Origin: a virus
Taxonomy: Duplodnaviria; Caudoviricetes
Direction: 5' to 3' (one strand)
IMG/VR virus record: IMGVR_UViG_3300002900_000020
Location: 750-64,749 of that record
Length of the DNA stretch: 64,000 nt
The notes below the pieces were generated by a model. It saw only the letters and a program-made list of their open reading frames with translations. It was not told where the DNA came from and searched no databases. This document shows, in pieces, positions 6,437 through 34,066 of the stretch. Both the position numbers and the translations under genes were made by a program. Each line of letters opens with the position of its first letter. The first letter of the stretch is position 1.

Positions 6437-8683
6437 CTAAACTCCCATTAATGCTTGAACAAATACAGCAGCATCAACGCGGCCTAAACCGTCTGTGTTG
6501 CTGGTATCCGTTCCAGGCGTTATCTCTATTATATTCCATTGTCCGACATTCATTTTGGAAGCTATATCAATGGCACTTTGATCAGTTGCATAAGTTCCAC
6601 CTACCTGGACACCATTGACCTTCACTGTCACATTGGGTGGAGTTTGACCAGTATAAATGCCAAAGCCAATCACATGGGTATGTCCAGGAACAGTCACTGT
6701 AACGGTATGACTATGAGAAGGGATTGTTATATCGTGTCGATGATGAGCATCTATCGTATGTGAATGACCGCCGGCTGCCCCCATGTTCCTGTAATCATGG
6801 TAATGGTCGCTCCCGGCAATAGTAGGAATAGTCCAAGAAGTGCTTCCACTATGGGCGTGGTCGCCCTCCCAGGACATAGCATCAGGCACAAACGCTGAAT
6901 ATAAATTATAGACATCATCGGAACTAGTCTGCGTCGTCCCCCCGCCACTACTGGAAGTCTGCGTGCTAGTCGTATCGCTCGCACTTGAAATCGCCTTTTC
7001 ATATGCCCGAAATGCCAGCAGCCTAAACCTCATTAATGCCTTTTTAATACTCTTGGTTTCTGCCGGCAAATAAACATAAAGCCGTAAAGGATTATCCTTA
7101 TCCACATTATCGGCCCGACCATCCTGCCAGGTTTGGAGAATTCCATCCTCATCCAGAACCACAGTCTGGCCATCCTTGGCAATTACCTGCAGCCCAAACT
7201 TCCCAGTCGCATACTGCCCGGCATGGAGCCTCTTCTTAGGGTTTGGAGTGCTATTGTCATAGACATGCAGCCCGTCTGCCATTAGCTTGGTATAACCATC
7301 CTCGGTGGCCAGGGCATAGAGTGCATTGACAATGATCTTGCTGGCCATGATACCCCGGGCGCTCACCGCAGTATCATATTCGTTTCCGTTGGGATCCTTC
7401 AACAACATTCCCTGGGGAGTCAACACAATCTCACCGCCGGTGGGGTTACCGGCCTGATCGGTCTCAATAATCTTAAACCCGTTATCTGTCCACTGAATCT
7501 TCCCGTTGCTCCCCAGAATCTGAGTGGCTTCTCCCACCAGCAGCCCCTTCAGCAGATTCTTTAACCCCGGGTTAGGCGCCACCTGCTCATTAACAATTCG
7601 CTGGGCCACATCCATAGATGCCAACTTCTCGGCCCAATTCTCCAGGGGGTCTCCTATCTCCAGTTCAGCCTGCTCCCGCTCAAAGAAGTTGTACCGGTTC
7701 TTAATCACCATCTGCTTAACATCGATGGCCAGGAACTCCTCATCATAAATGGTAACTACATCCCCAACCCCGAAAACCTCTCCTTCGTAGCCGGTCACAT
7801 ACCGGAGGTCCACCATTTTCACCTGGTAGTTGACCTTCGGCCGGGAGGTTTTAGCCACTTCTTTCAGGGCCGCATCCTTCAGTTCCTGCGGATCCTCGAT
7901 ATCCTGCCTGTCGTAGTTGCCCTCCTTTATGGCCCAAGACGGGACAGGGTCGGTAGGAAGTAGTTTTAGCTTTTCCCGGATATAGGTGAAATCCTCAACA
8001 TAAATCACGTTGTTATTGACGCTGCGGATATCCAGATGGTCTTTGCCGTAGGGGATAAGGCGGTTCACTATATTCGTATCAGTTTCCCGCTTGATGCTTT
8101 TCAAGTTCTTACCGTACCTGATATGAACCGGCCTCTCAATACCTGGGTTGACCACCAGGAAGACGGTTTTCTGGAGGCTGTTAAATTTCAGGTATCCGCC
8201 CCATATTTTTTGGACCTCCCAAAGGTTAGCCAGGCAGGAGAGTTTTTCTGTTTCTAAGTCGTGGGTACCCAGAACATCTACAGTACCGACTGTCCACCCG
8301 GTTGGAGCCAGCAATTGAGTCAGGACGGTAAAAGCATCGGCCCTTAGAATTTCTACGGTAATATACGGGGTATAGATGCCGCCTAACTCAATATAACTCT
8401 CCTCAAATTGAACGTTAGACAGCAGCTTACCACTATCATCCCGCTCCTCTTCCTTGCCGACTAGAACAAACTCATGGCCATCAGCAATTATGCTGTACTT
8501 ATCATCAATAAATTCCCACTTGGACGAATTCATGGGCAGAATAAATTTCAAAGTCACCTGCCCATTAAGGTTTTCCTCTATCCAGCAATTCTTTATCCCG
8601 TCCGGGTCGGGAGAGATGAAGGCCACCGTACGACTGGTGGCCCTTTCTTTTACTTCTAATGCCTTTTTGCCTACATCGACCAA
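6437..8683 (-). CDS. Tail tip (Tal-like, Prophage_tail family) protein with C-terminal spike/fibre region
   Basis: IRYGKNLKSIKRE, NRLIPYGKD, KVNYQVKMVDL, GDVVTIYDEE motifs; His-rich HSH/HTH repeats near the C-terminus. Confidence 0.85.
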   Translation of the reverse strand: MVDVGKKALEVKERATSRTVAFISPDPDGIKNCWIEENLNGQVTLKFILPMNSSKWEFIDDKYSIIADGHEFVLVGKEEERDDSGKLLSNVQFEESYIELGGIYTPYITVEILRADAFTVLTQLLAPTGWTVGTVDVLGTHDLETEKLSCLANLWEVQKIWGGYLKFNSLQKTVFLVVNPGIERPVHIRYGKNLKSIKRETDTNIVNRLIPYGKDHLDIRSVNNNVIYVEDFTYIREKLKLLPTDPVPSWAIKEGNYDRQDIEDPQELKDAALKEVAKTSRPKVNYQVKMVDLRYVTGYEGEVFGVGDVVTIYDEEFLAIDVKQMVIKNRYNFFEREQAELEIGDPLENWAEKLASMDVAQRIVNEQVAPNPGLKNLLKGLLVGEATQILGSNGKIQWTDNGFKIIETDQAGNPTGGEIVLTPQGMLLKDPNGNEYDTAVSARGIMASKIIVNALYALATEDGYTKLMADGLHVYDNSTPNPKKRLHAGQYATGKFGLQVIAKDGQTVVLDEDGILQTWQDGRADNVDKDNPLRLYVYLPAETKSIKKALMRFRLLAFRAYEKAISSASDTTSTQTSSSGGGTTQTSSDDVYNLYSAFVPDAMSWEGDHAHSGSTSWTIPTIAGSDHYHDYRNMGAAGGHSHTIDAHHRHDITIPSHSHTVTVTVPGHTHVIGFGIYTGQTPPNVTVKVNGVQVGGTYATDQSAIDIASKMNVGQWNIIEITPGTDTSNTDGLGRVDAAVFVQALMGV

Positions 8684-8697
8684 ACCATCACCCCTCC

Positions 8698-11574
8698 TTA
8701 CAGGTACTTAGTCCTTTTCTGTACTTCAATGGTTATAGTCCTGGCAGTTTCGCCATCCTGATACTTAATTGTATTAGCCCCCGGCAGGAGCGCAAAAAAA
8801 GCACCGTTTATGAGGTGCAACACATTGGTTCCATTAAGTTTGGCAGTCATGGCCTTCATATCAATGACCAACTCATCCCCTGGGGCCAGAGTACCGGTGA
8901 AGGTTATAGCCTTGGAGTCCGGGGCGACTGAGGTGGTACCCAGGATATCGTAGGTGGTGTTGATAGGGATTTTGATGGAGTGCTCGTTAATAACTTCATA
9001 GGTGGTATTGATGGGTACCTTGACAGAGTATTCGTTAACTACCGTGTATTCGGTGTTAATCTGTTCTTTGATGGAATAGAGGTGAATTATTTCATACTGG
9101 GTTTCGATTACTTCCCTGATTCGGTCGGAGCCGGTGAGGGGCCGGGAAGTATATGGGGTAGAGCCGCAAGCGAAGCCGCCCATGACTACGTGATTGCCCA
9201 CGACTTGAGGAGATACTATACTGAGGTTTGCCGTACCGGTTATCCCACCATAGGATGCTGTTACAGTAACTGCTCCATCAAATAAGCCTGTGACAGTAGC
9301 GGTGCCATCCAGATTATCGTTGATGCTGGCAATGCTAGGGTTAGAAACAGTCCAAGCAAATGGTACCGTGACATGGTTACCGTTGATATCCTTTGCGATT
9401 GCGGTAAATGTTTGGGTTCTATCAGGCGATATATTGGCCGTTGAAGGGATTAAAGTTATAGTGAAAATCGCCACAGTAGAAGATTGGTTACCCAGGCTGT
9501 CACTAACCGTTAGTATGGTACTATATGTACCGCTTGAAACAACTGCTCCAGCGTCATTCCTTCCATCCCATGTCATTGAAGATGCTCCGACAGGCTGCTG
9601 GGAAGTTATGGTTCTTACCAAAACTTTATTGTTATCGTATATTCTCAGGGTTGACTCTAAAGCTACCTCGAAAGAATCCTGGGTAGTATAGTTAATTGTT
9701 ACTGGTGTTCCAGAATATTGAATCGTTGCCGGAAAGCCAGATATAGTCGGAGCTGCTTTGGGAAGGTTTGTGGTTTTTGTAGTAGCCGGACTAGGATGGT
9801 TGTGCGTTACAGATAAATTAGATACAGTAGCGTGGACATTCTCGAAGGTAATTTTATAATGCGTAGGGGTAAAGGTATACTTAATCGTCATCAGCCTGGT
9901 TGTATCTGTGCTGTCGTATACGTCCCAGGCCATCACCAGGGTTTCGCCAGCAACTTGTTTGGTCGGTTCGTGAATATTAAGCTGACCCTGGCCAGTTTGT
10001 GCTCCTGCCAGTCTATAGGTTGTTCCACCAGCAGTAAAGGTAATATCTTTGACTGGATTAGTATTAGTTCTACGGTACATGCCAGGAATTGACCAATCAT
10101 TAGATAATCCAGCAGGTTCGTCTATTATCACGTCGTACCCTGCATATTGAATAAGCTTGATATAACCATCTAACCCCGTTTTATGCCGTAAGATAGAATG
10201 ATAATATTGGGATTCATAGCGTAGCCCTTTTTGGTCTGACTGCCCTTCCTGATCATTGTAATCGAAGTGAGCATATACCGGCATGGGGTTGGAGTTAGTT
10301 ACCACCGTTTCTAAGTAAGTGCCCAATTCAGAAACGGAATAAAAATCAAGTAAATAACCGTAGCGATCTTTCATCCATAGCATTAGCTGTTTGTCCAAAT
10401 GCCACATTTCAGTATCGCCATTCGGAAGTATTATCCCTGACCTAGCATTAACTTCTTTGAACATCCAGTAGGGGTCGATATAGCACGGAAGGAAATAATA
10501 GTCATTAAAAGTGATTGACTGAGAATCCTCCATCAGCATACGGATAGTATTCTGCTGTGCAAAATAGTTATTTGTGCTGTCTACTATCCCCAACCCTGTA
10601 ACATCGCTCTTTCCTACTATGTCCGGTTCTGGATTCATTCGATACGGCCCCCACTGCAAAGGGGTTAATCCTGCTATGATGTTTTGAGTATTTGCGGGAT
10701 TGCCGTTACCTGGGACATTAGAATGTCGCTTGGAAGGCTTGTAAAACTGAAAAGGGATACCTAAAGAGCCATTATTATCCACAGAGTTCCCTTGCTCCCT
10801 GGTTCCGCCCGGAGCTAATTTATAACCTAAAGACACCGCTTTTTCTATTAAATCATTATTATATTGCCATGCTACACTGGCAACAGGGTATTTCCCAAAA
10901 ACTTCAAAACATTTATCGTGGCACTCTTGTATCCGTTGTATCTCTGAGGTTATACCTTCGCTCCATGAAGGATTAACAGGAAACCACGCATAGTGAGGTA
11001 GGGTTACTATGTCATAACCATAACTGGTAACTAAGGTCTTTAAATAATTTAAAATATTCAATGGTTCGCCACTTGTGGCAAAAAGAATTTGTCTACTTAC
11101 ATAAAGGGTGATTTTGGTTGTAAAATTAGCCCTAATCCAATCATGTAGCGTCTGAATTTGCGCTTGCGTAGGATTAGAGGCGGTCATGTGGTCAGTGCTA
11201 GTACAAATAAGATTAACAATTACCTTACCTCTTATAGTTCCACCTGTATAGGGTGTATCTATTAATGTTGTGGTGTTTGTAACAGACCCGCTGGATTCTC
11301 CTTCTGCGTTATATGCAGTTACCTTATACCAATACTGTTTGTTTCGTTCCAAGCCAATAAAACCGGGGTAAGAACGATAACTGTCTAATTGGGTACTAGC
11401 CGGTCTTCTATCCTCATAACTGGTCGTGGTAATCGTTGCTATTTGAGTGTAGTTAGAGCCATCTTCTGACCTGTAAATCTTGTATCCAAGGGAGCCGCTT
11501 ATAGCTCCCCATGATAGGCTTACTTTATTCACGCCAGGAGTGATGTTTACTATTGGGTTACCAGGTATTGCCAT
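8698..11574 (-). CDS. Multidomain virion protein: FN3, polysaccharide-deacetylase/NodB-like barrel, FlgD-Ig, Big_2, and C-terminal Dit half-domain
   Basis: VSLSWGAISGSLGYKIYRS (FN3); MTWDGRNDAGAVVSSGTY (FlgD); end TFTGTLAPGDELVIDM...LLPGANTIKY...RTKYL matches Dit C-termini. Confidence 0.7.
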   Translation of the reverse strand: MAIPGNPIVNITPGVNKVSLSWGAISGSLGYKIYRSEDGSNYTQIATITTTSYEDRRPASTQLDSYRSYPGFIGLERNKQYWYKVTAYNAEGESSGSVTNTTTLIDTPYTGGTIRGKVIVNLICTSTDHMTASNPTQAQIQTLHDWIRANFTTKITLYVSRQILFATSGEPLNILNYLKTLVTSYGYDIVTLPHYAWFPVNPSWSEGITSEIQRIQECHDKCFEVFGKYPVASVAWQYNNDLIEKAVSLGYKLAPGGTREQGNSVDNNGSLGIPFQFYKPSKRHSNVPGNGNPANTQNIIAGLTPLQWGPYRMNPEPDIVGKSDVTGLGIVDSTNNYFAQQNTIRMLMEDSQSITFNDYYFLPCYIDPYWMFKEVNARSGIILPNGDTEMWHLDKQLMLWMKDRYGYLLDFYSVSELGTYLETVVTNSNPMPVYAHFDYNDQEGQSDQKGLRYESQYYHSILRHKTGLDGYIKLIQYAGYDVIIDEPAGLSNDWSIPGMYRRTNTNPVKDITFTAGGTTYRLAGAQTGQGQLNIHEPTKQVAGETLVMAWDVYDSTDTTRLMTIKYTFTPTHYKITFENVHATVSNLSVTHNHPSPATTKTTNLPKAAPTISGFPATIQYSGTPVTINYTTQDSFEVALESTLRIYDNNKVLVRTITSQQPVGASSMTWDGRNDAGAVVSSGTYSTILTVSDSLGNQSSTVAIFTITLIPSTANISPDRTQTFTAIAKDINGNHVTVPFAWTVSNPSIASINDNLDGTATVTGLFDGAVTVTASYGGITGTANLSIVSPQVVGNHVVMGGFACGSTPYTSRPLTGSDRIREVIETQYEIIHLYSIKEQINTEYTVVNEYSVKVPINTTYEVINEHSIKIPINTTYDILGTTSVAPDSKAITFTGTLAPGDELVIDMKAMTAKLNGTNVLHLINGAFFALLPGANTIKYQDGETARTITIEVQKRTKYL
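8939..9108 (-). repeat. About 3.5 tandem 48-nt (16-aa) repeats, INTxYxVINExSIKxP
   Basis: IETQYEIIHLYSIKEQ / INTEYTVVNEYSVKVP / INTTYEVINEHSIKIP / INTTYDILG. Confidence 0.85.
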
Positions 11575-14807: not shown

Positions 14808-15356
14808 TTAAGGCGTATTAACCCTTGTGATAGTGATATTGCTTACCGGCGTTGTACCGGAATTAACGATACGAATAACCGGATACTCCTCCGGGTTCCG
14901 GGCCTCCATCTGAATGTTCTGGGTCTGTTCGTTTGCCGTAACCGACCACGATACCGCTTCAGCCAGGTTGGAATAAAAGTACGGATCTGAGCATACAAAC
15001 GGCAGAGTAAATTTCCCTGCCGTAACTAATTGTTCTAATGGGATACTGCCGGAATACCGTGCCATGCAGTATTTGTCCGGGTCCTCATCCAGGATTAACT
15101 TGCGTTCACCTTTCTTGGGATTCAACCAGGCCGCTATCTGGGTTTTCTTGAGCAGAAAATCTGCACGGCTGTTACCCTTGACTATGCACTCGATTTCAAT
15201 GGTACGCTTATCGAACTCACTGCCAAAGTACCAGACCCCGTCCCGGCCAGGGACACTCTCCTCCCGGTCTCTGGTGGAGGGTGCCAGGCTTGGCATAGCC
15301 CGGGCCTTAATTCCATAGGTTGAACTATGCACCCCATCAAAAGTAAACCCGCCCAT
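14808..15356 (-). CDS. Distal tail protein (Dit), N-terminal part only
   Basis: FTFDGVHS...VPGRDG...LILDEDPDKY...FVCSDPYFY; directly after the TMP; stops before the usual C-terminal ~70 aa. Confidence 0.85.
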   Translation of the reverse strand: MGGFTFDGVHSSTYGIKARAMPSLAPSTRDREESVPGRDGVWYFGSEFDKRTIEIECIVKGNSRADFLLKKTQIAAWLNPKKGERKLILDEDPDKYCMARYSGSIPLEQLVTAGKFTLPFVCSDPYFYSNLAEAVSWSVTANEQTQNIQMEARNPEEYPVIRIVNSGTTPVSNITITRVNTP

Positions 15357-19941: not shown

Positions 19942-19973
19942 AAAAAAGGAACCTGCCTAATTTAGCAAGCTCC
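19942..19973 (-). terminator. Rho-independent terminator upstream of the TMP
   Basis: Minus strand GGAGCTTGCT-loop-AGGCAGGTTCC then TTTTTT. Confidence 0.6.
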
Positions 19974-19996
19974 TATGTTTCTATGTGATATATCCT

Positions 19997-20298: not shown

Positions 20299-20952
20299 TT
20301 ACGCAGACCTATGTAATGTCTGAATCAGCGTAGACCCGCTAACCAAAACCACATCATCACAGAGAGCGGCAAACTCCCGGGCCTGCCTTGTGAAATCGCT
20401 TGAAGTAATCAATATCGCCCGGTCTGCCTTATGGGCCATCATGGTTCCGTATAAATCCCGCACTTCTCTGGCCCCTACCGGGTTAGACCAGTTCTTGCAC
20501 TGAACTATGGCGTATTCTGAACCATCAGCCTTCCAAGCATGGAAGTCAATACCTCTGTCACCTGTCCGGGGCGTCGGCTCGATGGCATAGCCGAGGTGCA
20601 TTAGGTACTTACCGATGAACTCCTCAAATTCTTCACCGGTTAAAGCCCGTATCTTGGCCAGTTTTGAATAAACCTTGTGAGGTGGATCTTTAGGAATGAA
20701 CTTATATTTCCGAAGTGAACGGACAAATAGAATGCAAATAATTAACATCACGACGGCTTCAATGTATTGTTTGCGAACCAAAAAGTTTAAAAAAGCAAAC
20801 CATGTCCCCAGGGAGAACAAGACCCTTGTTAACATAAGCACCATCCTTAAGCGGGGTGTTACTATCATAAGTATACCCCAAAGAGGAAGTATATGCCAGT
20901 CCACCACAAATAAATTCGCACATAGGTTCGTCTCATCCCATTGCCTACTCAC
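20299..20952 (-). CDS. Membrane-anchored Mrr-family (PD-(D/E)xK) restriction endonuclease; real start may be 20835
   Basis: Two N-terminal TM helices; LTGEEFEEF, TGDRGID, VQCK, VGAREVRDL, ILITSSDFT motifs. Confidence 0.85.
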   Translation of the reverse strand: MSRQWDETNLCANLFVVDWHILPLWGILMIVTPRLRMVLMLTRVLFSLGTWFAFLNFLVRKQYIEAVVMLIICILFVRSLRKYKFIPKDPPHKVYSKLAKIRALTGEEFEEFIGKYLMHLGYAIEPTPRTGDRGIDFHAWKADGSEYAIVQCKNWSNPVGAREVRDLYGTMMAHKADRAILITSSDFTRQAREFAALCDDVVLVSGSTLIQTLHRSA

Positions 20953-21840: not shown

Positions 21841-22629
21841 TTAAGCAACAGTATACCGTCTCAAAGTACCCAACTTCTTGTCAGGCCGCTCAGGGTCAAG
21901 AACCCGGAGACTTACAGTCTGGGAGCCGGCCCCACGCTTGGCATCATAGGTAATGTCACCATTGGACAAGCAGGAGAACAGCTCGATCTGGAAGCCGGCC
22001 AGTTCACCGGACCTCTGCCTCCATTGGCCATCATGCACTACGGCAATGGGGAAGGGTTGATCATCACGCAGAATGTCGTAAACTTCCACCTGGGCTTGGG
22101 TGTATTTATAGCTGACCACCAAGTCCTTGCCGATATCGCCGACATGGAAGTCAATCTGGCCGTTGGCGTTAACCTTGTACTCTCCAGCTTGAGCCGGAGT
22201 GCCGGAAACCTTGGTCAACTTAAACCCTGTGTCAGCATACTTGACATGGGCCACGGTAGTGACCTTGTTTGTCTTGCTAAGGGTAGCGGTACCGGCAGTA
22301 GGCGTTGCGCCAACCCCTTCCACTTTGATGAACTCACCCAGTTTCCACAGTTCCACCTCGTTGGTGTCGGCCTGGGTTACAGAACCACCCAACATTACCC
22401 GGTATGCATCCAGGTTGTACTTCACATCTTCCGCAGTAACGGTAATCTCTTTGTTCTTTACAAGGGAGTCGATGGCGTAGTAGGAATTACCGTCCAGAAT
22501 GTCTTCGATGTCAACCTTGGCAGACATTTTGAAGGTGGACAGGTTGGCAAGCTCCAGAACTTCGGAAGTGTCTGCGGGGTTGTAGGCCCAGAAGGTCCCT
22601 GCGCCTTTGGAAATAAGCTTCTTGGTCAC
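21841..22629 (-). CDS. Major tail tube protein with inserted Ig-like segment
   Basis: 262 aa, beta-rich; position after the neck genes and before the chaperones. Confidence 0.75.
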   Translation of the reverse strand: MTKKLISKGAGTFWAYNPADTSEVLELANLSTFKMSAKVDIEDILDGNSYYAIDSLVKNKEITVTAEDVKYNLDAYRVMLGGSVTQADTNEVELWKLGEFIKVEGVGATPTAGTATLSKTNKVTTVAHVKYADTGFKLTKVSGTPAQAGEYKVNANGQIDFHVGDIGKDLVVSYKYTQAQVEVYDILRDDQPFPIAVVHDGQWRQRSGELAGFQIELFSCLSNGDITYDAKRGAGSQTVSLRVLDPERPDKKLGTLRRYTVA

Positions 22630-22635
22630 TTTAAA

Positions 22636-23370
22636 TCAGTCTCCTTTCTGTTTAAATTCTTTTAGTTGGTCCCGGGTCATGATGTGCTGACAGAAAATAG
22701 AGCTATCGCACCAAAGGCTAAAACCCCTTTCTTTGGCTTCCTGGCAGAAGTAGATGTCTTCACCTTGGGGATGATAGCCATACCGCACCTTTCTAATGAC
22801 TTTCCGGGACAATAAATAAACCGCCCCAGTCACATCTACTTCGAATAGACTGTTAAGCGGATAGTCACGGTAGCTTTGCAGGCCTTCCCGACGAATCATA
22901 ATATTGGGGAACCGGTTGGGATAGTTTTCGTGGGCGTTGAAGTGGTAGTCATTGTAGATCAGGGCCGCTACTATGTCTTTCCGATGTGCCAGGAGCCGAG
23001 TTAGAATGTCGGGCGGCACGATGATATCGGAGTCTACAGAGAAGAGATAGTCAATTTCAAGGTTTGCTGCTATGGAAAGGAGGAGGTTCCTGACTTCCGC
23101 CAGGGGGCCGTAGATTCTGTCCCTTTCCTGACGGTCTTCCCTATCCTCCGGGGCACATTGATTACGCTCAATAATTGTGGTTGAGTGATTCTTGGCAAAT
23201 TCAAATAGCAGTTCCCGGCTGTTATCAGTGGAATCGTTTAGGATGAAGCAGAAGGTTAGTAGTTCCTTAGGGTAGTCCAACCTTTCCAGAGCCGCCAGGT
23301 AATACGGCAGCACCCAAGCCCGGTTGCGGACCGGCGCACCGATGAGGATCCGTGGCAATGAGTTAGGCAT
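22636..23370 (-). CDS. GT-A fold (GT2-like) glycosyltransferase
   Basis: ILIGAPVRN, LNDSTDNS, DxD motif FSVDSD, GEDIYFC; ATG overlaps the upstream TAA (TAATG). Confidence 0.9.
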   Translation of the reverse strand: MPNSLPRILIGAPVRNRAWVLPYYLAALERLDYPKELLTFCFILNDSTDNSRELLFEFAKNHSTTIIERNQCAPEDREDRQERDRIYGPLAEVRNLLLSIAANLEIDYLFSVDSDIIVPPDILTRLLAHRKDIVAALIYNDYHFNAHENYPNRFPNIMIRREGLQSYRDYPLNSLFEVDVTGAVYLLSRKVIRKVRYGYHPQGEDIYFCQEAKERGFSLWCDSSIFCQHIMTRDQLKEFKQKGD

Positions 23371-24377
23371 TATAGCCCCTTCCTCTCTAACGCTTCCTCT
23401 ATGGCCGCCATAGCCACCTTGGCCCTTGCATCCCAGGAGTTTTGCCTGGCCAGTTCGATTCGCCTTGCGACTACTTCCGCTGAATTGTTCCATGGTTGGA
23501 TTTGCACAGCAACATTAGCCAAAAACTCATCGTAGTGGCGAGAAACATAAACTTCTTTAAGTTGCTGGGCCTCTGGCAAAGCAGTAGTCACTACCGGCTT
23601 ACCTGCCGCCAGATATTCCCACATTTTAATAGGGTTACAGGATTCAATCATGGATGTCACCTTGAAGGGGATAATCGCCACATCGAAATGCTGTAGATAC
23701 CTCGGCAACTCTTCGTAATCCTTGTACCCCAGGTAATGGACACCTGACGGAATCTGCTCCTTTCCAATCCCATATAAGCACCCAATCATCACCACTGACC
23801 AACCAACACGCTCAGCTAACCTAGTCAGTCTCTCCACCATTTCCCAATCCACCCATGTAGCCAAGGCCCCGTAAAAACCAACTATCGGCCCTGGAGGCAA
23901 GTCGGCTGGTCTGGGTAGTTGCTCCGTCCGGTGAAAATGGTCGAAATCCACCCCGTTCGGCACTAGGTGAACATTATTATTCAACCGCTTCGCCATGTCA
24001 TAAAGCTTCTGCGAACTGGCCAACACCACATCAGCTCTTCGTACCGCCTCTTCATACCTCGGTGCCCAATGGGCAAACTCTTCGGTTGGCTCATCAATGC
24101 TATCAAACACTACCAGTTGCTCATCGAACCGGCCCAGGCAGCTTACATGTTCCGGGTAGGAGTAATAGAAAATCGGCTTATTCGCCACAGGCCCGGCCCG
24201 GTTATACAGGAATAGGTTCGGCTCTATTTCCTGGATGCCAGTCGGCTGCGCAACATAATGGTCATGGTTCATAAAATGAGCTTTCCACCCTGCCCGGGCG
24301 AAGACTTTCATCATCTGCTGGGGCCGCTGGTGCATATAGTAATAGTCCACTGTAGGAGGATAGATTATTTCTCTCAT
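23370..24377 (-). CDS. GT-B fold (GT4/TuaH-like) glycosyltransferase
   Basis: QRPQQM, VPNGVDFDHF, VGFYGAL, NPIKMWEYLAAGKPVV motifs. Confidence 0.92.
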   Translation of the reverse strand: MREIIYPPTVDYYYMHQRPQQMMKVFARAGWKAHFMNHDHYVAQPTGIQEIEPNLFLYNRAGPVANKPIFYYSYPEHVSCLGRFDEQLVVFDSIDEPTEEFAHWAPRYEEAVRRADVVLASSQKLYDMAKRLNNNVHLVPNGVDFDHFHRTEQLPRPADLPPGPIVGFYGALATWVDWEMVERLTRLAERVGWSVVMIGCLYGIGKEQIPSGVHYLGYKDYEELPRYLQHFDVAIIPFKVTSMIESCNPIKMWEYLAAGKPVVTTALPEAQQLKEVYVSRHYDEFLANVAVQIQPWNNSAEVVARRIELARQNSWDARAKVAMAAIEEALERKGL

Positions 24378-24835
24378 AGAATCGCCTCACTCATCTGATA
24401 CCGCTGGCTGAACAGCTTTATATTCGCCACCCCTGACCGCCCCCCGAATTCACCCAGCCACTGAATCTCAAAGGCAGCGGTATCGGCTACATTTAGGATC
24501 TTGCCATTAAATAACTTAAACACCTGCTTCCCTATGGTCATAGCCTCAAAAAGGGAACCGGCGTAGATATCTACCTGATAAGTAGCGTCATAAACCGCAT
24601 AATTATCTTTGTTCGGCAGCCCTGGTGTTGGGTAGATACAAACTAAGGGGATTGAGGTAGTAACCAGGCCATTAGGTTCCTGCTCTTTCTGCACCTTCTG
24701 ACTCTTAGTCTGCGGAGGCACTGCGGCAGGATCCGGCGGAGTTGACTGTCGTAATACCAACCTCAGAAACTCTGCATCATCCGTCAGCACCTTCCCCAAG
24801 GCGTTGCAGGCATCCACAGCCGACATAAACCTCAC
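24374..24835 (-). CDS. Putative tail terminator/completion protein
   Basis: Position; YQVDIY strand pattern typical of gp17-like proteins. Confidence 0.6.
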   Translation of the reverse strand: MRFMSAVDACNALGKVLTDDAEFLRLVLRQSTPPDPAAVPPQTKSQKVQKEQEPNGLVTTSIPLVCIYPTPGLPNKDNYAVYDATYQVDIYAGSLFEAMTIGKQVFKLFNGKILNVADTAAFEIQWLGEFGGRSGVANIKLFSQRYQMSEAIL

Positions 24836-26876: not shown

Positions 26877-27977
26877 TTACTGGTTCAAGGTGAGGACTTT
26901 AGTAGCCTCGTTAAACAGCTTGGAAAAACCATTGTTCTCGGAGACAGTCAGAACCGAAGTCTGATTCAGAATGAACTTCTCGGACTCCATGATATCGGAA
27001 CCGATTTCAGTTACCTGCTCAATACCGTACCGGCGGTCAAGGCCAATCAACTGGTTAGCCGGAGCAGACTTCAGGTATACCAACCGATAGTTAACAAATA
27101 GATCTTGAGTCAACTGCATCTTGGCTTGCACCGGACCTTGCTGAATCATGCTCAGAAGCACCAAGGGGTCGACGTTGGGGAACTGCATAGTCAGCACCTG
27201 CAACAGTTCAGCCTCCCCGCCAATTACAGTAGTACACTGATACGGATAAAACTTCAGCAAAAACTTCAGCCAGGACTTGTAATCCAGCCCATCAAGCACC
27301 ACACCGCCCAGGTCGGCATTAAGCCGGTAAACGGTTGCAGCATTGTTGTTGCCGTCACCGTTAATGATGACCCCTAAGGCATCGTCAGCCTTGTCCATGG
27401 ATGTCTGCTCTGCAATCCGACGAACATGCAGGGCCAGCATATCAATCCGCATCCGGCGAATAGCTTCGTAGCTTGCTTTGATGGCCCGACCATACTTATA
27501 GATCTTAATGCTTTGGTCTTTGCCTTTTAGTTCGGCCAAAGGCAGCTCACCGGCCTCAGTTACACGCTTTTTGGTCTGTTCTTCCGGCTGGTCAGCAACA
27601 TAGTAGGAACTGTACACATTAGTGTCGATGGGAGTGTTAATGGCTACCAGCTCAGGGAGAATACTGTCGGCTATTAATACCTCCCTGGCAGTACGGGAAA
27701 TGAATTCCGGGAACAGGACTTTGGACTCTTCAGTCTGGTAGAATGCTTCCACGGTGCTGGCGTAAATACCCTTTTCCTCCTTGGATGCAACCCTTATCCC
27801 GAACCGCTTCAACTGGCGTTCATAAGCGTCCAGTTTTTCGTTAGGCCCATAGGCTTCTGAAGGGTCAATTTTCTCCAGGTATTGAGAGAAGGTCAGTTTT
27901 TCAGCCTGGGCCTTCTTAAACATATCAACAGAAAGCTTAATATCGTTTGCTTTAGGGGTTACAGTGATTCCACTCAT
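26877..27977 (-). CDS. Major capsid protein (HK97 fold)
   Basis: 366 aa; KKRVTEAGELP, IYKYGRAIKASYEAIRR, VIINGDGN; position. Confidence 0.88.
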   Translation of the reverse strand: MSGITVTPKANDIKLSVDMFKKAQAEKLTFSQYLEKIDPSEAYGPNEKLDAYERQLKRFGIRVASKEEKGIYASTVEAFYQTEESKVLFPEFISRTAREVLIADSILPELVAINTPIDTNVYSSYYVADQPEEQTKKRVTEAGELPLAELKGKDQSIKIYKYGRAIKASYEAIRRMRIDMLALHVRRIAEQTSMDKADDALGVIINGDGNNNAATVYRLNADLGGVVLDGLDYKSWLKFLLKFYPYQCTTVIGGEAELLQVLTMQFPNVDPLVLLSMIQQGPVQAKMQLTQDLFVNYRLVYLKSAPANQLIGLDRRYGIEQVTEIGSDIMESEKFILNQTSVLTVSENNGFSKLFNEATKVLTLNQ

Positions 27978-31809: not shown

Positions 31810-33390
31810 CTATTTCCTTGGCATAGTCACTATCATCGGTGCAGCAGTGTGCTGGAATTCTTTATCTTCATTAATCATTTCCGCCAAGCCAGTCAGCGCA
31901 TCAGCCGCGTCATCATCCTTGTTTTTGCCTTCTTTTTGGAAAGTGGTAATGGCTAGATAAAACTCCGGATACTTATAATTCCACCTCGGAGGAAAGAATA
32001 CATGATTAGTTATAAAACTACTATTCGTCAATATCCTTGCGATTTTATTCGCCGACTGATGGAACCATTCGACGCTTACACTTTTTGTTTGGTGGCGTTC
32101 CCATATCAACCGTTCGACATTCCGCGCAAAACCCCGGCCGCCGTTGTTAGATTCAATTTTAGCAAGGTTTACATCGTTCCTGGCCAGAAAATCCGCTGTG
32201 GCTGGTTCAGTGATTTCCATGGCTTCCTGCGTATAATAAACATCAAGTATCCACGCTTCGCCCTGATATACCCCGGCCACGATTGAACAAAGCCAGTTGT
32301 TTCCCTCATCAGCCGTATCGGTGTAACTGATAATCTGTTCAAAGAGTGGATAGCCGTTATCATCCCTGGGGATATCGGTCCATTCTTTCAGATCCTTGTA
32401 CAACCGCCCCTGGATGTCAACCGGTTCCTGGTGGTAGTTGGCTCGGAATATGGCCGGGTCCATGGTATTGCGCAGACTATTGTACCGTTTTTTTGACAAC
32501 AAGTCCGGGCAAAGCATTGTATCTGTGGCTTCGTTGTAAACTTCCATTTTCAAGACATACCACTCATCCGCTTCGGGGCCGTCAAGTATTCTGCCACATA
32601 TATCCTTTTTAGCCCAGCGGGTCATGTTGACTATTTCAAGCGGTTCACCGCCTTTGGCAGATACCCGGGACATGAATGTGCCGGTATACCATCGCCATAT
32701 TTTATCAAGATGGTTCTCGTTAAACGCTTCCTCTGCGCCTTTAACGGGGTCATCAACAATGAGTATGGTACCGCCTTTTGATGTAATAGACCCACCGACA
32801 CCTGCGCCAAGGTATGAAAAATGCTGGCCTTCAAGAGCCCATTTCTCAAAGCCGGCATTACTTCTTTTAATTCTGGTCTTGGGGAATATGTCAGAGTAAA
32901 CAATGTCGGCGGCGTCAATCTTTTGGACTGTAATGCCGTCCCTGGTATAGCGCGAAAAATCACTTGCCGTGCTGTCGTTATACGAGCAAGTAATTATTTT
33001 TTCTTTGGGATTTTTCCCGAACACCCAGCCAGCGAAATTAATTAGCGTCCTTGATTTGCCGTGCTGGGGAGGGAGGTTGAGCATCAGTTTTTTGCAAGTC
33101 TGGTAACCGGTCGGCAGTCCCTCTGTGCTATCAACGATAGTCCATTCTTTCACTGGCGGGAACCGGACGATTCGGCCCTCATATAACGCCTGCAAGATGT
33201 TGCATATAATCTTAAGGTGTTCCCGGTCGTCTAAATAAAAGTCAGGCGCTACAGTTTTACAGAAATGCCAAAAGCTTTGCTGAGCTTGCTCTATCTCAGT
33301 TTGTCTCTGCCCCTGGTCTATGTAGTTTTCTACGTTTGCCTGGGAGCAAATATAATCATGGATTTGGTTAAGCACATCATTTGCCACCAC
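31810..33390 (-). CDS. terL: Terminase large subunit
   Basis: PPQHGKS Walker A, LIVDDPVK Walker B, YTDTAD and DDDAADAL nuclease motifs. Confidence 0.95.
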   Translation of the reverse strand: MVANDVLNQIHDYICSQANVENYIDQGQRQTEIEQAQQSFWHFCKTVAPDFYLDDREHLKIICNILQALYEGRIVRFPPVKEWTIVDSTEGLPTGYQTCKKLMLNLPPQHGKSRTLINFAGWVFGKNPKEKIITCSYNDSTASDFSRYTRDGITVQKIDAADIVYSDIFPKTRIKRSNAGFEKWALEGQHFSYLGAGVGGSITSKGGTILIVDDPVKGAEEAFNENHLDKIWRWYTGTFMSRVSAKGGEPLEIVNMTRWAKKDICGRILDGPEADEWYVLKMEVYNEATDTMLCPDLLSKKRYNSLRNTMDPAIFRANYHQEPVDIQGRLYKDLKEWTDIPRDDNGYPLFEQIISYTDTADEGNNWLCSIVAGVYQGEAWILDVYYTQEAMEITEPATADFLARNDVNLAKIESNNGGRGFARNVERLIWERHQTKSVSVEWFHQSANKIARILTNSSFITNHVFFPPRWNYKYPEFYLAITTFQKEGKNKDDDAADALTGLAEMINEDKEFQHTAAPMIVTMPRK

Positions 33391-34066
33391 CTGTCATGGC
33401 CTGGTGCTCCAGGGCCAACTGTCTTAGCCTTGGATTGCCTGCCAGTTTGGCCAGTACGTTATTACAGGCATCCGGATTTTCTTTTCTGAATTCCTCGATG
33501 AAGATCCTGATATATTCCTGGACCAGGTTATATTCATGGACCTTGGCTGTAAGATCCACCATAAACTTGTTATTCTCCCGGATCTCCTTGCTGACTGCCG
33601 CCAGTTCATAGATGTAATTCTGGAAGTCCTTTTTGTGGCGCTCCAGATAGACCTTGACTCGATCAATTACCCAAAGTGGATTCCCTAACCGTTCAAGGTC
33701 ATCCAACAGTTGTTTATAATGCCTGTCAACACGGTCCGGGAATTGCTCTATTTCATCCAATTGAAGAAACATCTTATTGCAGAGCGATATTTGGGACTGG
33801 ATTATATCGAACTCCTGGTTGACAGCCTTTTGAATCCGACGCCGGTCGGCCTTGATAACCTCGACCTTCTTCTCTGTCTCTCGGTTTCTGAATCTCTTGA
33901 CAGCCATATTGGTGATGGTATCTTTGATGCCCTGGCGGGTGAGCTCCTCGTTACATAGTTTGGCCAAGGTTACATCGGCAATGTCCCTGTTTCGATTGAT
34001 GTGGTCTGTCACGAATTCTTCTAAGCCGTATTTTTCAATTTTTCCTGGTTTGGCCATGGGCATCAT
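33377..34066 (-). CDS. terS: Terminase small subunit (DUF3486/Mu gp27-like)
   Basis: N-terminal HTH (TITNMAVKRFR), helical body, overlaps the TerL start. Confidence 0.7.
   Translation of the reverse strand: MMPMAKPGKIEKYGLEEFVTDHINRNRDIADVTLAKLCNEELTRQGIKDTITNMAVKRFRNRETEKKVEVIKADRRRIQKAVNQEFDIIQSQISLCNKMFLQLDEIEQFPDRVDRHYKQLLDDLERLGNPLWVIDRVKVYLERHKKDFQNYIYELAAVSKEIRENNKFMVDLTAKVHEYNLVQEYIRIFIEEFRKENPDACNNVLAKLAGNPRLRQLALEHQAMTGGGK

Follow-up and report, generated by a model that had tools for sequence, protein, structure and literature searches.

Why does a phage carry two glycosyltransferase (GT) genes between its tail terminator and its major tail protein, and what might the two enzymes modify? 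The question is raised by positions 22636-24377 of the DNA shown above, a stretch of 64,000 nucleotides (the window) that spans nearly the whole of an IMG/VR provirus record of 64,749 bases with a CheckV completeness of 88%. A preliminary description of the window had proposed that this two-gene cassette is expressed together with the neck and tail genes and that its products glycosylate the virion. In the analysis reported here, virion glycosylation by late-expressed enzymes, with the tail tube as the likeliest acceptor, was the best reading, and we hold it with about even confidence.

Two glycosyltransferase genes within the neck-tail operon

The upstream gene of the cassette (23370..24377, minus strand) encodes a soluble, GT4-like glycosyltransferase of 335 amino acids with a GT-B fold. 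The protein scored 37.2 bits against Pfam Glyco_trans_1_4 (PF13692, cut-off 27) and 27.0 bits against Glycos_transf_1 (PF00534, cut-off 26.4), and in PHROGs it was assigned to the glycosyltransferase family phrog_7162. It retains all 25 family-invariant columns, including K251, E254, G259 and P261, the conserved C-terminal nucleotide-sugar site is present, and the protein belongs to the GT4-type enzymes. The downstream gene (22636..23370, minus strand) encodes a soluble, Anp1/GT25-like enzyme of 244 amino acids with a GT-A fold, which is likewise a glycosyltransferase in PHROGs. Scores were 58.7 bits against Pfam Anp1 (PF03452, cut-off 28.8) and 25.8 bits against GT21 (cut-off 21.7), and 77 homologues conserve the residues D113-x-D115, E204-D205 and H229 to at least 90%. 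Profile score and DxD motif together identify it as Anp1-like. A longer reading frame for GT-A, reaching 23493, was rejected as an over-extension; the ATG within the TAATG at the gene junction has a good Shine-Dalgarno sequence.

As judged by their conserved catalytic residues, both enzymes are likely to be active. Neither has a transmembrane helix (for GT-B the maximum Kyte-Doolittle value of a 19-mer was 1.2), and they are therefore expected to be cytoplasmic. A sequence match of GT-A in the PDB was to the N-terminal GT domain of procollagen galactosyltransferase 1 (COLGALT1; E 2.5e-11). This nearest solved relative modifies a protein, and the match, which covers the N-terminal domain only, is a hint of a protein acceptor. 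In P0096 and L010/L011, GT-A and GT-B occur as one fused protein, which suggests that the two enzymes work together. The GC content of the cassette and its GC content at third codon positions (GC3) equal those of the flanking genes; the cassette is therefore not a fresh foreign arrival. PADLOC matched neither enzyme, and a known defence system as the identity of the pair is thus unsupported.

Both neighbours of the cassette were verified by fold. The tail terminator gene (24374..24835, minus strand) is an open reading frame (ORF) of 153 amino acids; the protein has 150 in public protein sets, with an ATG three codons in. An AlphaFold model built from an alignment of homologues reached a predicted local distance difference test score (pLDDT) of 88. 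Foldseek matched it to T5 p142 (template modelling score, TM, 0.68), to a gene-transfer-agent particle (TM 0.65-0.72) and to lambda gpU, T4 gp15 and pyocin collars. The major tail (tube) protein of 262 amino acids (21841..22629, minus strand, GTG start) gave a model with a pLDDT of 94. Its best match was 8xkn_B (E 2.6e-14, TM 0.71-0.76), a siphovirus tail tube, followed by the tubes of JBD30, YSD1, Chi and Mystique, and it matched phrog_2729 at 1.2e-13. The tube protein holds an inserted immunoglobulin (Ig)-like domain at about residues 98-182. Very large proteins (P0161, 777 amino acids; P0185, 3116 amino acids) contain the same domain in 9-10 tandem copies, and tube homologues of about 360 amino acids match the window tube in two stretches.

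The gene junctions were read directly. The TGA of the terminator gene and the ATG of GT-B overlap in ATGA (24374..24377, minus strand), and the TAA of GT-B and the ATG of GT-A overlap in TAATG (23368..23372, minus strand). A gap of 6 nucleotides separates the TGA of GT-A from the GTG start of the tube gene (22629), and the Shine-Dalgarno sequence of the tube gene falls within the end of GT-A. Each start is preceded by a Shine-Dalgarno sequence, and no intergenic gap between 25407 and 21841 is longer than 12 nucleotides. Between 15000 and 34500, promoter-like sites were no more common than in shuffled sequences (26 versus 22.2) and neither were terminator-like sites (23 versus 22.8); none of either kind lies at the GT junctions. 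What the preliminary description had stated about the layout is borne out in full: Pfam and the folds of the neighbours place GT-B and GT-A between tail terminator and major tail protein, the overlaps at 24374/24377 and at TAATG exist, and the cassette borders lack a promoter or terminator of their own. From the missing transcription signals and the start codons that overlap preceding stops, we infer that the cassette is expressed late only. Synthesis of the enzymes would then coincide with that of the late virion proteins, in the same cytoplasm in which heads and tails are put together.

The pair has none of the marks of a lysogenic-conversion moron (own promoter or terminator, position in an accessory zone, membrane components); its place is within the neck-tail operon, and 39 kb separate it from the integrase gene. 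A classical moron is present in the same operon. An Mrr-like type IV restriction nuclease gene (20299-20952, minus strand; PADLOC mREase_IV 1.3e-13, PDC-S02 1e-16), coding for a protein with a hydrophobic N-terminal part, separates the tail chaperone genes from the tape measure gene. A spacer precedes it, and it is followed by a 94-amino-acid ORF and a strong terminator (19947-19974). This is the layout of a defence-type moron inside a tail operon. In contrast, the GT cassette has neither a spacer nor a terminator, and this difference in layout points toward a virion role for the glycosyltransferases.

Recurrence of the cassette beside tail-tube genes

The surroundings of related GT genes were analyzed in 44 viral contigs, where GT-B in L020-L025 and GT-A in L019 were read by tblastn and direct translation. 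Searches of viral contigs with GT-B or the tube as a single-protein query gave no matches; smaller alignments as queries worked. Relatives of GT-B and GT-A were found 1-4 genes from tube genes of the same family (phrog_2729 or the A2 profile) in three further arrangements. In L019, GT-A, GT-B and a third glycosyltransferase gene lie immediately upstream of the tube gene. In a second group (group A; nine contigs, L009/L020-L027/L030/L044), the tube gene, which matches phrog_2729 at 1.1e-50, is followed by GT-A, GT-B, another glycosyltransferase gene, the chaperone genes and the tape measure gene. In a third group (group B; L022, L026 and L028), a nine-gene glycan-building island (L028:9075-17781) comes directly after the tube gene. 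The island codes for five glycosyltransferases (one each GT-B, CgeB-like, GT-D-like, GT2 and Anp1-like), a DegT sugar aminotransferase, a hexapeptide acetyltransferase and an FkbM methyltransferase, and holds one gene without assignment.

The likeness of these three arrangements to the window is that relatives of both enzymes adjoin a tube gene of the same family. They differ in that the cassettes elsewhere lie downstream of the tube gene or run from GT-A to GT-B, often with extra glycosyltransferase, aminotransferase, acetyltransferase or methyltransferase genes. Their GT-B proteins are only 29-39% identical to that of the window and fall into other clades of the GT-B tree. Across all 44 viral contigs, adjacent genes in the order GT-A then GT-B, the reverse of the window, were seen in 17.

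Other positions in late modules were observed as well. The cassette directly follows the major head protein gene in L004, L005 and L031, stands before TerS in L015, and lies after the distal tail genes, together with two methyltransferase genes, in L006. In L032-L040, GT-B fusion proteins of about 550-1000 amino acids are encoded between TerL and portal and are flanked by methyltransferase genes; in detail (L035:4645-13560, also L032-L040), the fusion is flanked by two genes for DNA methyltransferases and two for other methyltransferases. The capsid protein of these L035-type phages is 41-51% identical to that of the window. An archaeal virus also has a GT-A relative: ORF15 of Methanobacterium virus PhiF1 (L001:11950-12657) is 36% identical and lies upstream of capsid and tail-sheath genes.

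Glycosyltransferase cassettes have thus repeatedly settled in late structural modules, most often beside one family of tail-tube genes. The simplest account of this recurrence is a linkage of enzyme and substrate. Enzyme and tube genes stay side by side across several lineages, which makes the tail tube the first candidate substrate and, by gene linkage, the most likely acceptor. In one tail module (L027:7977-8954 and L027:11993-12994), the GT pair is bracketed by a gene for an HNH/homing endonuclease and an integrase-like gene (phrog_1, 3.2e-26), the latter also present in L020 and L023-L025. These flanking genes may reflect the way in which the cassette is mobilized.

Possible acceptors and competing roles

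For virion glycosylation we envisage that a two-enzyme cassette was inserted between the terminator and tube genes of a temperate siphovirus. A short O-linked glycan would be built on a virion protein from nucleotide sugars, one enzyme starting the chain and the other extending it. A protein as acceptor and the tube as this protein are the conditional parts of the reading, as is the late co-expression of the enzymes. An alternative, weak candidate for an acceptor is a Ser/Thr/Gly-rich linker (6911..6988, minus strand) at about residues 566-591 (about 26 residues) of the 748-amino-acid tail-tip protein (Prophage_tail, PF06605). Ser or Thr make up 16 of 30 residues in this region, which is the sole mucin-like tract found among the virion proteins.

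Several results weigh against this reading. The capsid, tube, adaptor, terminator and other neck proteins are not richer in Ser/Thr than homologues from phages without the glycosyltransferases, and the tube has a Ser/Thr content of 14.5%, compared to 15.0% in the closest relative, which very probably lacks the enzymes. Across the family, GT-linked tube proteins contain 17.8% Ser/Thr and unlinked ones 14.5%, a difference that is confounded by lineage. Neck proteins gave no signal for C-terminal tags, and on capsid and tube no Ser/Thr-rich acceptor segment co-occurs with the enzymes. A glycostain survey of ten phages, including phages of C. perfringens and B. cereus, detected no glycoproteins (PMC12894461). 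Position in the tail module is no proof of a virion role, since the Mrr-type defence nuclease lies in the same operon.

Related phages, moreover, do without the cassette at this junction. A profile search of viral contigs with tube homologues retrieved 36 contigs, about 30 of which share the portal-to-tube gene order of the window at 25-43% protein identity. In about 30 relatives the terminator gene is joined directly to the tube gene; among the contigs of the tube profile, glycosyltransferase genes at this junction were found only in the window and in L019/L134. Among 5.8 billion protein clusters, the closest relative has a terminator that is 83% and a tube that is 87% identical, both encoded on one contig of 23,788 bp. 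The best GT-B homologue anywhere in these clusters is only 49-51% identical and does not lie on that contig. Judging by these protein-database identities, the nearest relative very probably lacks the cassette, which would therefore be dispensable for assembly. It is an accessory insertion, taken up as a unit at the terminator/tube gene boundary. The position of the glycosyltransferase genes in related phages thus speaks for both sides: the genes recur beside tube genes of the same family, and they are missing at this junction in about 30 relatives. The pair of phages is also a natural experiment, with a two-gene cassette in one phage that is very probably absent from a relative with flanks 83% and 87% identical.

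The remaining objections come from the homologues of the enzymes, and they are at the same time the case for the strongest rival explanation. According to this rival, the cassette modifies a surface glycopolymer of the host or a spore-surface component (wall polysaccharide, a teichuronic-type polymer, a coat or crust glycan). It would copy the job of a host enzyme pair, with receptor masking, superinfection exclusion or altered spores of the lysogen as the purpose. The best curated family for GT-B is the wall-polymer (teichuronic acid) enzyme TuaH (NCBIfam equivalog NF047676), with 89 bits over residues 110-317 only, far below the cut-off of 550; the score marks GT-B as a distant TuaH relative and not as TuaH. 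The GT-B family is large, with more than 596 confirmed matches in the genome scan and the best ones in Syntrophomonadaceae, and a metagenome scan found it widespread in soils and sediments. The nearest homologues (40-47% identity) form a chromosomal GT-B/GT-A pair in a sporulation-flavoured locus of Syntrophomonadaceae, beside a CgeB-like glycosyltransferase, YhcN and SpoIIR. A GT-A relative directly follows GT-B, as in the window, in 53 of 80 genome loci; this order is thus that of the host, and the 17 viral contigs mentioned above have it reversed. These host loci are not prophages, and none of them contains a tube homologue. Families, gene order and the degree of identity connect the two pairs, whereas the host GT-B has 430-460 amino acids with a C-terminal extension of about 100 residues, compared to 335 amino acids in the window, and the host pair lies outside a prophage.

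The host backbone starts with metG, tatD, a yabE-like gene, YhcN/YlaJ, ksgA and veg. Genes for a coiled-coil protein, the CgeB-like glycosyltransferase, a zinc-ribbon protein, GT-B and GT-A follow, and downstream are genes for a 188-amino-acid Cys-rich protein without family and a patatin, then spoIIR, ispE, glmU and prs. The block between veg and spoIIR/ispE was found at L076:7373-14455 and in about 50 other Syntrophomonadaceae genome loci. To judge from the neighbouring genes, it may be an uncharacterised locus for glycosylation of the spore surface. A flagellar glycosylation locus was ruled out for the host pair by the Pfam assignments (metG-tatD-ksgA-veg...spoIIR-ispE-glmU-prs).

In a FastTree phylogeny of 122 GT-B domains, rooted at the midpoint, the window GT-B groups with viral contig L006 and one further protein. 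The three are sister to the Syntrophomonadaceae clade and stand at a distance from the majority of viral copies; the tree therefore puts the window enzyme with the host clade. An exchange with the host-type locus is suggested, in a direction that the midpoint-rooted tree does not fix. In the same tree, P0093 from Paenibacillus donghaensis neighbours L027. Host-type origin and host-type order fit a role on surface polymers or on the spore surface equally well, and an accessory cassette in a temperate phage with an integrase (63053-64000) is also compatible with such a role. Against it stand the layout of the genes and their distribution. There is no promoter for lysogenic expression, both junctions are translationally coupled to late genes, and the cassette lies outside the moron zone after lysis. 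Remodelling within minutes before lysis would barely affect a Gram-positive wall, and the recurrent adjacency to tail-tube and capsid genes is left unexplained. We therefore regard modification of the host surface as possible, if on the unlikely side. As to virion glycosylation, the proposal of the preliminary description is supported in part, by the recurrent tube linkage, the fusions and the conserved catalytic residues; against it stand the lack of a Ser/Thr tag on capsid or tube, the accessory nature of the insertion, the host-type homologues, the remote TuaH likeness of GT-B and the defence moron in the same operon.

The enzymes could also have a late target outside the virion (a host protein, a phage assembly factor or a small molecule), or the cassette could be a passenger insertion without role. 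The acceptor searches without signal and the insertion that is polymorphic between close relatives agree with this, and boundaries of phage genes are known recombination points. Against it, both enzymes retain all family-invariant residues, the cassette equals its flanks in GC and GC3, and cassettes of this kind have settled in late modules many times; we consider this explanation unlikely.

A further variant combines host origin with a virion target. The pair would have been captured from the glycosyltransferases of the host sporulation locus and would attach, to the exposed Ig-like domain of the tube or to the tail-tip linker, a glycan of the kind found on the spore or cell surface of the host. 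If this were true, the particle would mimic the host surface by its sugars, and it would be the first example of virion glycosylation in a phage of Bacillota. We regard this variant as quite improbable. Finally, glycosylation of phage DNA (hypermodified bases) against restriction is hardly tenable: one distant group has the L035-type GT-B fusion between DNA methyltransferases and the phage carries an Mrr-type nuclease that cuts modified DNA, but such a nuclease would endanger a phage whose own DNA is modified, the Pfam matches of the pair are of the GT1/GT4 and Anp1/GT2 types with no DNA glucosyltransferase family among them, a non-exhaustive scan of ten replication-region proteins found no gene for base hydroxymethylation or hypermodification, and the cassette is part of the late structural operon, not of the replication module.

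Relation to known systems and the other late genes

In mycobacteriophages, phage-encoded glycosyltransferases attach sugars to the capsid and the tail tube (PMC12363180, citing Freeman 2023). In the literature searched, virion glycosylation by phage enzymes was reported for mycobacteriophages only and inferred for other actinobacteriophages (PMC12363180, PMC13313380, PMC12582341), and no report was found for phages of Clostridia-like hosts. This agrees with the preliminary description, which knew of no such case in a Clostridia phage. The label itself is only loosely supported; the phage is a temperate siphovirus, as its integrase gene indicates, of a spore-forming member of Bacillota, with a host possibly of Syntrophomonadaceae type.

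The likeness to the mycobacteriophage systems (Che8, Corndog, Myrna) consists of phage-encoded, soluble glycosyltransferases in or beside the structural genes, with capsid and tail tube as proposed targets in mycobacteriophages. The host phylum here is Bacillota and not Actinomycetota. The window cassette comprises two genes, a TuaH-like GT4 and an Anp1/GT25-like GT-A. A distant GT-A relative is gp12 of the cluster J phage Optimus, 27% identical over the C-terminal half; its gene lies between those for the head-tail connector and the major head protein. Partial matches of this kind to cluster J phages were the only ones seen to mycobacteriophages, in which the experimentally tested enzymes are Che8 gp108-110 and Corndog gp35-38.

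Prophage glycosyltransferases for serotype conversion or wall teichoic acid (Gtr and TarP types) are made in the lysogen under the control of their own signals, and their targets are envelope polymers; the Gtr proteins are membrane proteins. The window pair shares with them that the genes are carried by a temperate phage. In contrast to them, it has no transmembrane segments and no promoter of its own, and it lies inside a late operon.

Virion glycosylation in mycobacteriophages shields the particles from antibodies. If it also holds for phages of anaerobic spore-formers that use unrelated enzyme families, sugar-coated particles would be a general strategy, with consequences for adsorption, for the stability of the particles and for their recognition by the immune system. 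The link to a conserved host GT pair in a sporulation-type locus would also give a handle on that host system.

All late genes lie on the minus strand. TerS (33377-34066) comes first in the late order and is followed by TerL and portal, then by the genes for a 557-amino-acid head protein and a scaffold-like protein and by the major capsid protein gene (26877-27977; PF25209). Between the capsid gene and the tail terminator are a 74-amino-acid gene and three neck genes (155, 193 and 191 amino acids). Downstream of the tube gene, two chaperone-like genes precede the gene for a tape measure of 1519 amino acids, and genes for Dit, Ig-domain proteins, the Prophage_tail protein and an amidase endolysin form the distal end. 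The two Dit domains were found in separate proteins: the Sipho_tail domain (Dit N-terminal) lies in a 182-amino-acid protein (14808-15356, minus strand), and the SPP1_Dit C-terminal domain closes a 958-amino-acid Ig-domain protein (8698-11574, minus strand).

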